From contig JBCCHT010000018.1 of NCBI GenBank assembly GCA_039028615.1, positions 96,001 through 160,000 on the forward strand: 64,000 bases of DNA. Reading direction: 5' to 3'. Under the pieces are notes generated by a model. That model was not told where the DNA came from. It did not search any database and worked only from the letters and a program-made list of their open reading frames with translations. The DNA comes from Myxococcota bacterium. GTDB lineage: Bacteria > Myxococcota_A > Polyangia > Nannocystales > Nannocystaceae. The translations under genes were made by a program, and so were the position numbers. Below, in pieces: positions 8,009-11,806 of the stretch (positions are counted from its first letter, which is position 1; each line of letters opens with the position of its first letter).

Positions 8009-9268
8009 ATGGCCGATGAACTGCGCGCTCGCATCGATGCACGACTCGATCGGTACCCGGGCGACATCATGCCGTTCGCTCCGTACATGCCGGTGCCGGC
8101 TCCCTTGCACTCGTTCGAGGAGCACAAGGCCATCGCGATCCGCGAGATGAACGAGCGGCTCGCCGCGGCCAAGGCCTCGATTCGCACGCCGCCCGATCCT
8201 TCGCTCATCTCCATCAAGTCCTGGCAGTTCGGCTTCACGGGCAGTGAGTCCGACGACGCGGCCACTCGGAGCGCACGTGATGGGCTGTACCTGCGCCTGC
8301 AGTCTCATCGTGGTGACTACGTCTCGTCGGAGCAGTGGCGTGGGTTCTTCGAGGCCATCGACAATCCAAAGCGGTGGGTCGAGTTCGGCGAGGCGGCCGA
8401 AGCCGAAGGGTGGACTGTCGAGGCCAACGCATGTTTCGCGGCTGCCCGCTGGCTCGATCCCGGTGTCGAGGAGCGCATCGCGACGGCGATCGCCGGGCGT
8501 TCGAACGATGCTCTCCCCGCTCGCCTCGTCCGTCAGCCCGACGCGGGCCTCGCCACGCAGCCCTTCATGCAGCGTCACTGGCTGGCTTGGGACATGAAGA
8601 ACTACGGGCGCCTCGATCTCCCCACGCTCATGCGCTGGGCCTGCGATCCCAACTTCTCTGTGCGTGCCCGGATCTATCGTTCGCTCGGTCAACGCCCGCA
8701 TCCCGCATCGATCCAGACGCTGCACGAGGGGCGCTTCGATCCCCATCCCTTTGCTCGCGCCCAAGCCCTACGTTCGCTCGGCTGGTGTGCCGACCCGACC
8801 GCGCTCGAGTTCCTGCGTACGATGGCGGCGTCCGATCCCGACGCAGAGGTCCGTCGCACCGCGGCCAAGGCCGCCCAGCGCATCGAGGGGTATTGGTGGT
8901 TCTACGGCGAGTGGAATGCGATCGCGGGGTCTGCGGAGCGCATGCTCGAGGTTGCCCGGTTCCTCGTCGACAAAGGCTTGCCCGCGTTCGTGTACAACAT
9001 CGTGGTCCTGTGCGATCGGGGCGACGACGGTGCGCTCGGTGAGCTCGTCGATTCGATCGAAGCCGACGCCCTCGAGCGCGACCGCGAGGACGAAGAACTC
9101 TACGCGCGCTCGCAGTACCACCACTGGTTTTCCGAGGCCCAAGAGCACGAGGCTCGGCGAGACTCACTCACCGATGAGGAGGCCCGGTCCGACGCGCGCC
9201 AGCCGGGAGCGGCGGGATTCGAGGGTCGGCGCACTCTCCGTCATCGCGGGCTGGCCGTCCCCTCATGA
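8009..9268 (+). CDS. HEAT-repeat protein
   Basis: DPNFSVRA, DPHPFARAQALRSLG, DPDAEVRRTAAKA repeats. Confidence 0.7.
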   Translation: MADELRARIDARLDRYPGDIMPFAPYMPVPAPLHSFEEHKAIAIREMNERLAAAKASIRTPPDPSLISIKSWQFGFTGSESDDAATRSARDGLYLRLQSHRGDYVSSEQWRGFFEAIDNPKRWVEFGEAAEAEGWTVEANACFAAARWLDPGVEERIATAIAGRSNDALPARLVRQPDAGLATQPFMQRHWLAWDMKNYGRLDLPTLMRWACDPNFSVRARIYRSLGQRPHPASIQTLHEGRFDPHPFARAQALRSLGWCADPTALEFLRTMAASDPDAEVRRTAAKAAQRIEGYWWFYGEWNAIAGSAERMLEVARFLVDKGLPAFVYNIVVLCDRGDDGALGELVDSIEADALERDREDEELYARSQYHHWFSEAQEHEARRDSLTDEEARSDARQPGAAGFEGRRTLRHRGLAVPS

Positions 9269-9369: not shown

Positions 9370-9404
9370 AAAAAAACCCTTGGCACCGGGGGAGGTACCA
9401 AGGG
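9370..9404 (-). terminator. Intrinsic terminator of the candidate sRNA
   Basis: CCCTTGGTACC-TCCCCC-GGTGCCAAGGG-TTTTTTT on the minus strand. Confidence 0.85.
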
Positions 9405-9534
9405 AAGGGGTCGGGGTGTTCCCTACAAGGCAGAGAGAGTTGGGCCCGCTGTCGGGGGAGACTGAGAGCCCACCGCCTCGTGGAAATCGTTGTCTTGCGT
9501 CGTTCGCTACCGTTCGTCCCTCGCCAGGGACAGC
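9370..9534 (-). ncRNA. Candidate sigma54-dependent small RNA with two UCCCCC-loop hairpins (Pxr-like architecture)
   Basis: Sigma54 promoter upstream, three hairpins with G-U pairs valid only on the minus strand, intrinsic terminator with U7. Confidence 0.7.
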
Positions 9535-9543
9535 CCCTTAGAA

Positions 9544-9559
9544 TGCGAGCGGTGTGCCA
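9544..9559 (-). promoter_or_regulatory. Sigma54 (-24/-12) promoter
   Basis: TGGCACACCGCTCGCA, exact GG-N10-GC spacing. Confidence 0.72.
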
Positions 9560-9649
9560 CGGGGTGCACGCGCCTGGCATTCTTTTAAAGTGTTTTGAGA
9601 TCAAAGAGATGCTTGGGGCTCGGCGGAACCATGACCGGGGGCCACAGCC

Positions 9650-9733
9650 GTCAATCCGATGACAAACCGACGGAGGTTCGACGGCTTGTCAGAAACTTGA
9701 CGCCGGATGTCGGGAAATCGTCGACACTTTGAC
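9650..9733. promoter_or_regulatory. Three GTC(A/G)-N6-TGAC palindromes, putative enhancer-binding-protein sites
   Basis: GTCAATCCGATGAC 9650-9663, GTCAGAAACTTGAC 9688-9701, GTCGACACTTTGAC 9720-9733. Confidence 0.55.
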
Positions 9734-9924
9734 GGCTAGGGGGAAACCTGGTGTGAAGTTCAATACCGCCCTCCCTTGCATCCAGCTCAACGTTCGGGCC
9801 GAACCGATTGAATTAGGGCGAGAAGGCTCGAATTCGATCGGTTCGGGCGCCGGCGACATTCGCGATCGACGGAAGAGATCGTCGGGCCGGTCCGGCCGTT
9901 GGCAGGGCAAGACGCCACCTTGCC

Positions 9925-10704
9925 ATGTCGAACACGCATACCGCGCCAACCTACTGGGGGGGCCCGACCGTGGGTCCGACCCCGAACTGGGCGGACTCCG
10001 CTCTCGCCGTCGTCCGAGGAACGGCGGCCTCTCCCCGCTGTCTAGCTCACGTGATGCGCACTCCAGAACAGGACGAAGCTCGCAGCGACGAGTCCCTCAT
10101 GGAGGCGTTTCGCCTCGGCGATGCCGACGCCTTCGAGGTGCTCGTCACACGCCATAGCCGCGGGCTGTACAACTTCTTGCTGCGGAGCGTCCATTCGCCT
10201 GCCCGCGCCGAGGAGCTGCTGCAGGACGTGTTGTTCCGAGTGATCCGCTCCAAGGACCGCTACATGCGTTCGGCCCGGTTCACCACCTGGGTCTATACGA
10301 TTGCGCGTAACCTGTGCGTGGACGAAAGCCGTCGCGCCCGGTTCCGCGATCACGAGTCGCTCGATGCGCCGCTGCGCGGCCGCAAGGCGCACGAGAGTTC
10401 TTCGAACATGCTGTCGACCTTGGCCAGCACCACCCCTTCGCCCGACCTGGGCGCGGACAGCCCTCGCCTGCGGGAGCGGCTCAACCGCGCCGTGCATCGG
10501 CTGCCGGTCGATCAGCGCGAGGTCTTTGTGATGCGGCTGATGGCGGGTATGTCCTTCCGAGAGATCGGCGAGACGGTGGGCGCCCCCGAAAATACGGTGA
10601 AGAGCCGCATGCGTTATGCGCTCGACAAGCTCCGCGACGAGCTGGCCGACCTGCGTCACGCGGTATGCTCGGTAGTGTCCGAGGAAAGCCTCGCCCATGG
10701 CTGA
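9925..10704 (+). CDS. ECF RNA polymerase sigma factor (true start may be ~10051/10054)
   Basis: GDADAFEVLV, AEELLQD, FTTWVYTIARN, EIGETVGAPENTVKSRMRYA. Confidence 0.92.
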   Translation: MSNTHTAPTYWGGPTVGPTPNWADSALAVVRGTAASPRCLAHVMRTPEQDEARSDESLMEAFRLGDADAFEVLVTRHSRGLYNFLLRSVHSPARAEELLQDVLFRVIRSKDRYMRSARFTTWVYTIARNLCVDESRRARFRDHESLDAPLRGRKAHESSSNMLSTLASTTPSPDLGADSPRLRERLNRAVHRLPVDQREVFVMRLMAGMSFREIGETVGAPENTVKSRMRYALDKLRDELADLRHAVCSVVSEESLAHG

Positions 10705-11806
10705 GTGGAGTCCCGCGCAGCTCGATCGCCTCGAGGATGCCCTCGAGGAACTCGAGCAGGAGGGTGGCCTCGAGCGTTGGCTCGAGGACGAGCCCGGCGT
10801 GGGCGATCCTCTGCGGGAGCGGCTGACGGACTATCGCGACATCCTGGTGGCCAGCCGCGAGGCGCTGCCCATGGAAGAGGTGCCGTCGGGCTTGCTCGAT
10901 GGAGTGTTCGAAGAGGCGCGACGCGCCGCGGCCACGCCCGCGGTGGCGGCGGCCAAGGAACCCTGGTGGCGGCGCCTGCGACGGAGCTTCTTGGTGCCCA
11001 CCGTGGCCCTAGCCGGCACGGCGGCGCTGGTGTTTTGGATCGGTCGCCCCGAGAGCCAGCCCACGAGCGCGGACATGCCTTCACCCGAGTCGGCCGAGGC
11101 CGCCGCGGCGCAGCCCGTCGAGCGAGCCGAGAAGACGCGCAAGCGAGGCGATCGGGCGGTCGCACCCGCCGATGCCGAAGGCGACGCCGAGCAGAGCCTC
11201 GAAGAAGAAGAGCAGGCCAAGGCCGAAGCCGAGCCGGACGAGCCGCCGCCGCCGCCCGCCGCCGTTCCGCAGTCGGCCGCGCCCACCCGCGCCCAGACCT
11301 ACGACGAAGGCGAGCTCGGGGTGAAGATCGACGGCAAGCTCGACGACGCCAAGGGAGCCGACACCGACAAGACGGGCAAGGTCCTCGGCGGCGTGCCGAC
11401 GGAGCCCGAGGTCGTGCCCGGCTCGGGCTCGGCGGGTCGCTGGGACTTGATCACTGCGGGCGATCAGGCGCGGCAGGCCGGCGACTGCGTGGGCGCGCGG
11501 CAGAGCTACGCGGTCGCGCTCGAGGACGATGAAGCCGCCGTACGGGCGCGGGCCTACGCGGGCATGGGCCTATGCGATGCCCAGCAGGGCAACTCCGCCG
11601 CCGCCGATTCGAACTACGAGCGGGCGCGGGAGCTCGACGGTGCATCCATCGACGACTTCCTCGACTCGCAGCGCGATCACGGTCCGCCCAAGACGAGTCG
11701 GCCCAAGCGCAGCAAGAAGAAGAAGGCCAAGCCTCGCTCGAAGTCGAGTTCGTCCAAGACGAACAAGGCGATCAACATGGACCAGATGAGCGACCCCTTC
11801 GGCTGA
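10697..11806 (+). CDS. Putative anti-sigma factor (TM helix plus C-terminal TPR-like region)
   Basis: Overlaps the sigma gene stop; N-terminal helical domain, WWRR then a TM segment, low-complexity linker, TPR-like helices. Confidence 0.7.
   Translation: MAEWSPAQLDRLEDALEELEQEGGLERWLEDEPGVGDPLRERLTDYRDILVASREALPMEEVPSGLLDGVFEEARRAAATPAVAAAKEPWWRRLRRSFLVPTVALAGTAALVFWIGRPESQPTSADMPSPESAEAAAAQPVERAEKTRKRGDRAVAPADAEGDAEQSLEEEEQAKAEAEPDEPPPPPAAVPQSAAPTRAQTYDEGELGVKIDGKLDDAKGADTDKTGKVLGGVPTEPEVVPGSGSAGRWDLITAGDQARQAGDCVGARQSYAVALEDDEAAVRARAYAGMGLCDAQQGNSAAADSNYERARELDGASIDDFLDSQRDHGPPKTSRPKRSKKKKAKPRSKSSSSKTNKAINMDQMSDPFG

Follow-up and report, generated by a model that had tools for sequence, protein, structure and literature searches.

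The spacer upstream of an ECF sigma factor gene in the window (the whole 64,000-nt stretch analysed here, from a genome of 12.3 Mb and 68% GC) had been read in an initial annotation as an sRNA gene with a sigma54 promoter and twin UCCCCC loops, either analogous to Pxr of Myxococcus or representing a new family of RNAs pairing with Shine-Dalgarno sequences. This raises the questions of whether the element belongs to a real RNA family, which regulator could switch it on, and what the RNA could act upon.

Layout, fold and strand of the RNA element

The components of the initial description are found on the minus strand as claimed: the promoter TGGCAC-ACCGCTC-GCA at 9559-9544, the 5' hairpin GTCCCT-GGCG-AGGGAC at 9531-9516, the long stem at 9486-9419 with its GTC-TCCCCC-GAC cap at 9462-9451, and the 11-bp terminator stem at 9404-9377 with a TCCCCC loop, followed by U7 at 9376-9370. 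The features of the locus, apart from the upstream palindromes considered below, are as follows.

9370..9533, minus strand: predicted sRNA gene of about 164 nt, its start deduced from the sigma54 spacing (±2 nt)
9544..9559, minus strand: sigma54 -24/-12 promoter TGGCAC-N7-GCA, read from the sequence, with GG and GC 10 nt apart
9516..9531, minus strand: 5' hairpin GTCCCT-GGCG-AGGGAC, invariant in 8 of 8 genus-level sequences
9487..9515, minus strand: A-rich linker, containing a G-Y-A-R-C-like stretch right 3' of the 5' hairpin that is conserved family-wide
9419..9486, minus strand: long interrupted central stem, with compensatory changes
9451..9462, minus strand: apical element GUC-UCCCCC-GAC, the family's conserved core UCUCCCCCG and the likely seed
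9459-9454, minus strand: UCCCCC loop of the central stem, within the apical element
9370..9404, minus strand: intrinsic terminator (11-bp stem 9404-9377, UCCCCC loop 9393-9388, U7 9376-9370)
9579..9600, no strand assigned: AT-rich tract between the palindromes and the promoter, seen in the sequence; the genus homologues are AT-rich at the same place
9925..10704, plus strand: divergent ECF sigma factor gene (Pfam Sigma70_r2/r4_2; NCBIfam NF009166 above cut-off; synteny)
10697..11806, plus strand: gene overlapping the ECF stop, which follows the ECF gene in the genus homologues as well

The fold of the element at 9370..9533 has a z-score of -3.56, none of 200 shuffles folding as well; of 1000 dinucleotide shuffles, 12 give a pair of hairpin loops with CCCC. 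Its MFE structure comprises six G-U pairs (four internal and two near helix ends), and not the four non-Watson-Crick pairs previously counted. In 28 of 33 sequences, a more stable fold is obtained for the reverse complement; as folding energy leaves the strand undecided, the minus-strand orientation rests on the promoter and the U-run. The AT-rich tract could possibly be a DNA-bending site of the IHF type.

Here and below, the promoter, the palindromes, the fold with its covariation, the synteny, the co-occurrence with an activator, and the position and loss of the flagellar cluster were established from sequence and genome comparison. On this basis, it is very probable that the RNA is transcribed.

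Conservation of the RNA in the Nannocystaceae

The RNA was matched in all same-genus genomes (n = 5; in one, the 3' half only, at a contig start) and in three metagenome contigs. The initial annotation had suggested covariation among homologues as a check, and in the eight full-length genus-level sequences 98.6% of the cells pair, with 6 of 37 pairs changed on both sides. This level of pairing and covariation is reached by none of 500 shuffles, a comparison inflated by the relatedness of the sequences, and slid registers yield 33-50%.

Diverged members in other genera were located by walking upstream of the ECF orthologues, and a CM was built from the promoter, the 5' hairpin and the central stem. 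It matches 30 of 73 Nannocystaceae genomes at E<=3.6e-6, with one copy in each; together with a partial copy found by BLAST in one further genome (G003), the RNA carriers total 31 of 73. A looser search for the promoter and the loop was noisy, hence its hits were retained only if confirmed by synteny or the CM. No paralogues of the RNA were found in the source genome by BLAST, the CM or a promoter scan. Outside the family, the CM has hits in 17 of 131 genomes with E-values from 4e-5 to 3e-3; among the 14 of these 17 hits that were inspected, none adjoins an ECF gene and none has the full layout.

The layout held constant across genera consists of the promoter, a 6-bp 5' hairpin, a short stretch 3' of this hairpin, the central stem and the terminator. 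All 22 aligned members have TGG and GCA in the promoter, with a variable spacer between them, and the 5' hairpin of other genera is an equivalent one of different sequence. The central stem ends in a 3-bp helix whose hexaloop reads UCCCCC in 29 of 33 members and is a C-rich variant in the remaining 4, so that the expected conservation of promoter and loop in relatives is borne out, and the U-G wobble closing the C-rich loop is kept in 20 of 22. Since the stems covary while UCUCCCCCG, including the wobble, stays fixed, selection acts on the sequence of UCUCCCCCG itself.

The twin loops, prominent in the initial annotation, require a qualification. They are real in the source genus, where the terminator-loop UCCCCC is present in 9 of 9 genus-level sequences, but this loop is absent from all 25 members of other genera; to judge from this distribution, the twin loop is a derived, genus-specific trait, and of the C-rich loops only the central one is shared by the whole family. 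Most members of the genus carry a third motif, similar to UCUCC(C), in the 3' bulge of the central stem, and genus g15 has an extra UCUCCC copy in the 5' hairpin. The extra copies in these two genera arose at different places, which would also suit binding by a protein; members outside genera g1 and g15 mostly have a single motif.

Among named records, those nearest to the adjacent ECF sigma factor come from Nannocystaceae. One of them, Paraliomyxa miuraensis (record L038), carries the same RNA and groups with the source genome in the ECF tree, which was built by a quick method and is poorly resolved. Rfam does not list the locus at E<=10, nor does any of six homologue loci match; hence the RNA belongs to no family described there. 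The suggestion of a structured sRNA family with a C-rich loop and a sigma54 promoter in myxobacteria other than Cystobacterineae is thereby upheld for the Nannocystaceae. We regard the predicted sRNA as a real family, conserved in the Nannocystaceae and uncatalogued, whose design, with a C-rich loop and sigma54 control, follows a known one.

A separate feature is seen in genus g10 (L039, L040, L154, L155, L159), where the inverted repeat GATCCACTTTGGATC or a close variant of it is situated 32-16 nt upstream of the promoter.

Upstream palindromes and a FleQ-like activator

Upstream of the promoter there are three palindromes, which, like any link to a flagellar master regulator, were absent from the initial annotation.

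9719..9734, no strand assigned: palindrome 1, CGTCA-N6-CGACG, likely activator site
9687..9702, no strand assigned: palindrome 2, CGTCA-N6-TGACA, likely activator site
9649..9664, no strand assigned: palindrome 3, TGTCA-N6-TGACG, likely activator site

Within 300 nt upstream of 32 promoters, 71 sites of the CGTCA-N6-TGACG type were observed, compared with 1.4 in shuffles. Genome-wide, the palindrome is no commoner than other spacings; as it shows no such enrichment, it appears to be locus-specific, which suggests a dedicated regulator. From one ECF locus to another, the palindrome and the sigma54 site come and go as a pair, the ECF gene itself being kept. The CGTCA-N6-TGACG pattern fits the FleQ consensus GTCaNTAAAtTGAC as quoted in the accessible part of PMC6120874, where, however, the consensus is called unreliable in P. 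fluorescens, the strain of that study. Among 130 half-site readings, the first base is a C 102 times and a T 20 times, and a PWM of the palindrome gives scores of at least 12 for 64 of 65 training sites.

The source genome (G000) encodes 39 bEBPs, one of which (C44:13647-15221) ends in the helix NRTTLVEKLRK, in our view resembling the helix of FleQ; FleQ and FlrA are among the top PDB matches of this protein. Its orthologues (identity of at least 56%, compared with at most 48% for paralogues) occur in 35 of 73 family genomes. All 31 genomes with the RNA carry the activator, and none of the 38 genomes lacking the activator has the RNA. Three activator-bearing genomes (G010, G011 and G068) have no RNA match, their ECF-orthologous locus not having been recovered, and one more (G086) has the activator, the promoter and the palindrome, but a diverged RNA without the loop. 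The latter genome is the sole activator-bearing one of 11 genomes in genus g14, and its ECF locus is the only one of 10 in this genus with the promoter and the palindrome. The layout recurs in a record of Enhygromyxa salina (L053), whose genome also holds the activator. Because related genomes are not independent cases and the ECF tree, a quick one, has poor resolution, we treat the co-occurrence as support rather than proof.

The sequences of L053 (from 2525 downwards, minus strand) and G086 (L348) both keep the sigma54 site and the palindrome in the gap between the ECF gene and mutM; the approximately 65 nt behind the promoter comprise two small hairpins and a U-run and lack UCUCCCCC, and would be either a decaying or a replaced RNA.

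The activator gene has palindromes near it as well: in 4 of 7 loci one is situated 84-99 nt upstream of the receiver domain of the activator, and the sigma54 promoter that comes first behind the gene is accompanied by one, unusually close, in only 2 of 4 genomes. Within the genus, the activator is 79-83% identical; it has a canonical receiver domain with its aspartate and a GAFSGA loop variant common to flagellated orthologues. Given this identity and the shared loop variant, the protein does not look decayed. Activation of the RNA gene by the FleQ-like protein appears quite likely from these comparisons. Of the 131 genomes from other families, 45 also encode FleQ-type helices; since no convincing RNA match was obtained there, the RNA looks specific to the Nannocystaceae.

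In the source genome, a gene for a 146-aa lipoprotein-like product is preceded by another sigma54 promoter, which has one strong palindrome (score 18.8; C37:95770-95830; L230); this gene is a possible second target of the activator. The pilin promoter was rejected as such a target, as the strong site of the source genome is not conserved at that position in 16 loci; used as a control, the pilin promoter adjoining a PilR-like gene has a different upstream motif. The latter, approximately GTGAC...AATTGTC, recurs by eye at the pilin sigma54 promoter in genera g1, g10 and g13 (G000:C47:48138 region; L358-L374) and is a candidate PilR site.

Loss of the flagellar cluster

The position of the activator gene in other genomes connects it with the flagellum. 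In G014, it heads a cluster running through flgB and fliA to csrA-fliW, with approximately 32 kb of flagellar genes between the activator and csrA-fliW (FlgB, FliA, CsrA and FliW were identified by NCBIfam, the other gene names come from sequence and order). Twenty of the 27 genes of this cluster have no match in the source genome, where the activator, csrA and fliW are side by side.

This three-gene arrangement (G000:C44:12884-15221; L229:4885-7222) looks like the remnant of a deleted flagellar cluster. The full cluster of G014 (C1:802000-841999; L266-L267) has several flagellins nearby. In genus g15, genome G019 (C32:84000-94000; L270) has the activator, flhG-like, fliA-like, csrA and fliW genes together, as named from sequence, with flagellins on other contigs, and this arrangement is an intermediate state of the cluster.

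Genes of the flagellin family were found in 26 of 73 family genomes (one by a weak match) and in none of 6 genomes of the source genus; nine RNA-bearing genomes, some of them 72-88% complete, have no flagellin match. The csrA gene is present in 63 of 73 genomes, most of them without flagellin. Thus, the RNA tracks the activator, and neither flagellin nor csrA. The retention of the RNA and the activator in the absence of flagellin makes it likely that the RNA has one or more important targets outside the flagellum. With 26 of 73 genomes retaining flagellin-family genes and at least one retaining a full cluster, the Nannocystaceae record stages of flagellum loss, in a group that is usually regarded as gliding.

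As in FleQ-type regulons, a GTCA-N6-TGAC site accompanies a sigma54 promoter at the RNA locus, and a bEBP of the flagellar cluster co-occurs with this site. The system resembles those of FleQ and FlrA in the palindrome, in the sigma54 promoter and in the activator gene heading a flagellar cluster. It differs from them in the canonical receiver domain with its aspartate, in that the best-conserved site drives an RNA gene, and in that the pair of activator and RNA is kept after the loss of flagellar genes. The RNA probably depends on a flagellar master activator that has survived the loss of the flagellum. The unusual part is this circuit, where a regulator of a lost organelle is kept and an RNA gene is what the best-conserved of its sites drives; the design of the RNA itself, with a C-rich loop and sigma54, is already known in kind.

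Comparison with Pxr and other regulatory RNAs

Pxr is the only studied myxobacterial sRNA found in the literature searched (on myxobacterial, C-rich, sigma54/flagellar and FleQ-linked sRNAs; mostly open-access main texts), and the RNA of the Nannocystaceae is undescribed there. The similarity noted by the initial annotation is visible in a number of traits: both RNAs are myxobacterial, have a sigma54 promoter, several stems and a C-run loop on a long stem, and occur in hosts without Hfq. Family membership, on the other hand, fails in tests by model, synteny and enhancer. With the Pxr model RF01812 (gathering score 80 bits) the RNA locus is not listed, while control pxr scores 113.8 bits, and vice versa, our CMs do not list pxr, taken from two Myxococcus genomes via a published primer. 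The best RF01812 hit elsewhere in the source genome has 26.9 bits and no promoter, and was dismissed as noise.

The gene pxr sits directly downstream of pxrR (nla19), according to the accessible text of PMC5568312 and PMC5684412; our pxr control likewise follows a bEBP gene, whereas the RNA loci scanned contain no bEBP. Upstream of the two pxr genes, the best scores of the palindrome PWM are 0.8 and -4.4. The loop of SL1, needed for the function of Pxr as stated in the portion of PMC5684412 at hand, reads UUCCCCCCCA in the Myxococcus locus examined; the C-rich loop of our RNA belongs to the second stem and has a different sequence, and the alignment to Pxr is not significant. The two RNAs thus differ in locus (pxrK-pxrR there, ECF/mutM here), upstream site and host family, and in that Pxr, which blocks fruiting-body development and is processed to short forms, is linked to a developmental activator and the present RNA to a flagellar one. 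The likeness to Pxr appears to be one of design only, and the RNAs form separate families.

Among C-rich RNAs of other phyla, 6C RNA of Actinobacteria has C-rich loops for which chaperone-independent pairing with G-rich mRNA has been proposed (accessible part of PMC6486639). Our RNA shares with it the GC-rich host and, in the source genus (9 of 9 sequences, as opposed to 0 of 25 others), two C-rich loops; it differs in having no Rfam 6C match, in phylum, in sigma54 control and in the second loop, which is not family-wide. In CJnc190 of Campylobacter and RepG of Helicobacter, a C/U-rich loop pairs with G-rich ribosome-binding regions (as described in the available portion of PMC8687705). RepG, like our RNA, has a free-standing gene, but the sequences of both are unrelated to it and their targets are proven. 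The RNA also recalls FlmE and FlmR of C. jejuni, the former cut from flgE mRNA and the latter FliA-dependent (PMC11187230, seen in part), as an sRNA connected to the sigma54 tier of flagellar regulation, but it has its own sigma54 promoter off the flagellar cluster and persists without flagellin.

Possible mode of action and alternative explanations

The reading that we prefer is that the FleQ-like master activator would bind the three palindromes upstream of the sigma54 promoter, which would then transcribe the predicted structured RNA of 164 nt, and that the exposed UCUCCCCC loop of this RNA would pair with G-rich mRNAs without Hfq and repress them in trans. Taken as a whole, this chain has a slightly better than even chance of being correct; base-pairing as the mode of action is, considered by itself, moderately likely. 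The C-rich loop, complementary to GGGGGAGA, is predicted to be unpaired; the 3-bp helix beneath it is weak and might open. Hfq was found in none of five genomes tested. Pairing with repression is favoured because similar loops pair free of chaperones in 6C RNA, CJnc190 and RepG. Searches for seed complements near start codons gave no conserved target in the source genome, where the starts come from a rough gene caller, and no gene in common among four other genomes (G012, G009, G014 and G036; 60 of 260 matches looked at); hence the anti-Shine-Dalgarno action proposed initially gains no support from them. The leaders of the csrA, flagellin, ECF and activator genes show unremarkable pairing with the RNA.

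The same promoter and activator could instead yield an RNA that binds a protein recognizing C/U-rich single strands, as its decoy, and possibly feeds the CsrA-FliW module. We consider this rather unlikely, as a single motif is the rule outside g1 and g15, despite the two to four UCUCCC-type copies per RNA in the source genus, the additional 5'-hairpin copies in g15, the lack of a conserved mRNA target in our searches, and the retention of csrA and fliW beside the activator gene. As to CsrA in particular, sponges of the CsrB/RsmZ type display many GGA motifs in loops, whereas our RNA has 0-3 such motifs, none of them in a predicted hairpin loop; being few and outside loops, they make a CsrA sponge unlikely. 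CsrA was also rejected as the partner because the distribution of csrA does not track the RNA. That the locus produces no free regulatory RNA at all, but a short-peptide mRNA, a leader or a mere terminator for the convergent gene, is hardly credible. An ATG, TTG or GTG codon just before TCT CCC CCG in some members would agree with a peptide, but others have AAG, CAG, TCG or ACG at that place, and the third codon positions never vary. There is no same-strand gene 3' of the terminator that a leader could serve, the neighbour being convergent (mutM; the HEAT-repeat gene here). Where two genes converge, a stem-loop may simply terminate transcription, but then the promoter, the palindromes and the central stem would be needless.

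The palindromes, in turn, could bind a different regulator, of the MrpC/CRP type or another bEBP, or serve the ECF promoter, with the activator co-occurring through shared descent, as kin are not independent. The GTC-N8-GAC spacing equals that of TGTYN8RAC of MrpC (available text of PMC4320627), and MrpC sites overlap bEBP sites at the mrpC promoter; however, MrpC binding needs TGT (both points from the accessible part of PMC10701913), whereas C predominates over T at the first base of our half-sites (102 against 20 of 130). The joint gain and loss of palindrome and sigma54 site beside a persistent ECF gene, the exception in g14 and the palindrome before the activator gene itself also speak against a different regulator, and we regard it as quite unlikely. 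A remote homologue or functional equivalent of Pxr gating multicellular development seems very improbable: the shared sigma54 promoter, the C-run loop on a long stem and the lack of Hfq in both hosts are outweighed by the absence of a cross-match between RF01812 and our CMs, the ECF neighbour in place of pxrR, the missing palindrome upstream of pxr (best score 0.8), and a marginal, low-complexity local alignment equalled by 25 of 500 shuffles. Moreover, P. miuraensis, a carrier of the RNA, is reported as lacking a distinct fruiting body (in the part of PMC9960870 available), and neither genus g17 nor the ECF loci of named Nannocystis records gave an RNA match; the P. miuraensis report and the Nannocystis loci make a developmental gate less likely. 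The flagellar link points to a motility or lifestyle circuit rather than to a developmental gate of the Pxr type.

Returning to the activator-driven, pairing RNA, we tentatively suggest, at somewhat less than an even chance, that non-swimming myxobacteria kept the flagellar master activator chiefly to make this RNA. The RNA would have been a non-flagellar output of an ancestral swim-or-settle switch, and then, as the cluster shrank to activator-csrA-fliW, its main surviving output, gaining further C-rich loops. If so, the RNA targets would show what the ancestral flagellar regulator controlled outside the flagellum at the move to surface gliding. With a cultured carrier, P. miuraensis, and a specific candidate activator, the family is directly testable.

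The ECF locus and its flanks

The RNA gene is divergent from the same ECF gene in every member whose contig extends far enough. The initial annotation had placed it opposite an ECF sigma/anti-sigma pair; the ECF part is supported by domains and synteny, but the product of 10697..11806 has no match in Pfam or NCBIfam, so that its anti-sigma role is suggested by position. On the other side, a HEAT-repeat gene (8009-9268, plus strand) converges on the RNA terminator; it is not beside the RNA in the genus homologues, and in other genera the position of the convergent neighbour is held by mutM.

The ECF loci of named Nannocystis records contain neither the promoter nor the palindrome nor the RNA, and the CM search gave no match in genus g17. 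Several loci (L044, L045, L049, L052 and L233) have a second, paralogous ECF copy without the upstream promoter, palindrome or RNA. At L065, the ECF gene is preceded by a sigma54-like site without a palindrome and then by a long near-perfect hairpin of short tandem repeats, which is a different element at the equivalent place. Directly upstream of the ECF start in the window, at 9876-9902 (plus strand), there is an AGATC-N16-CGTTG motif, and a similar one (AGATC/GGATC, N15-18, CGTTG/CGTTC) occurs in 22 of 40 ECF loci, its position having been checked in part of them; this motif is possibly an autoregulated promoter of the ECF gene.
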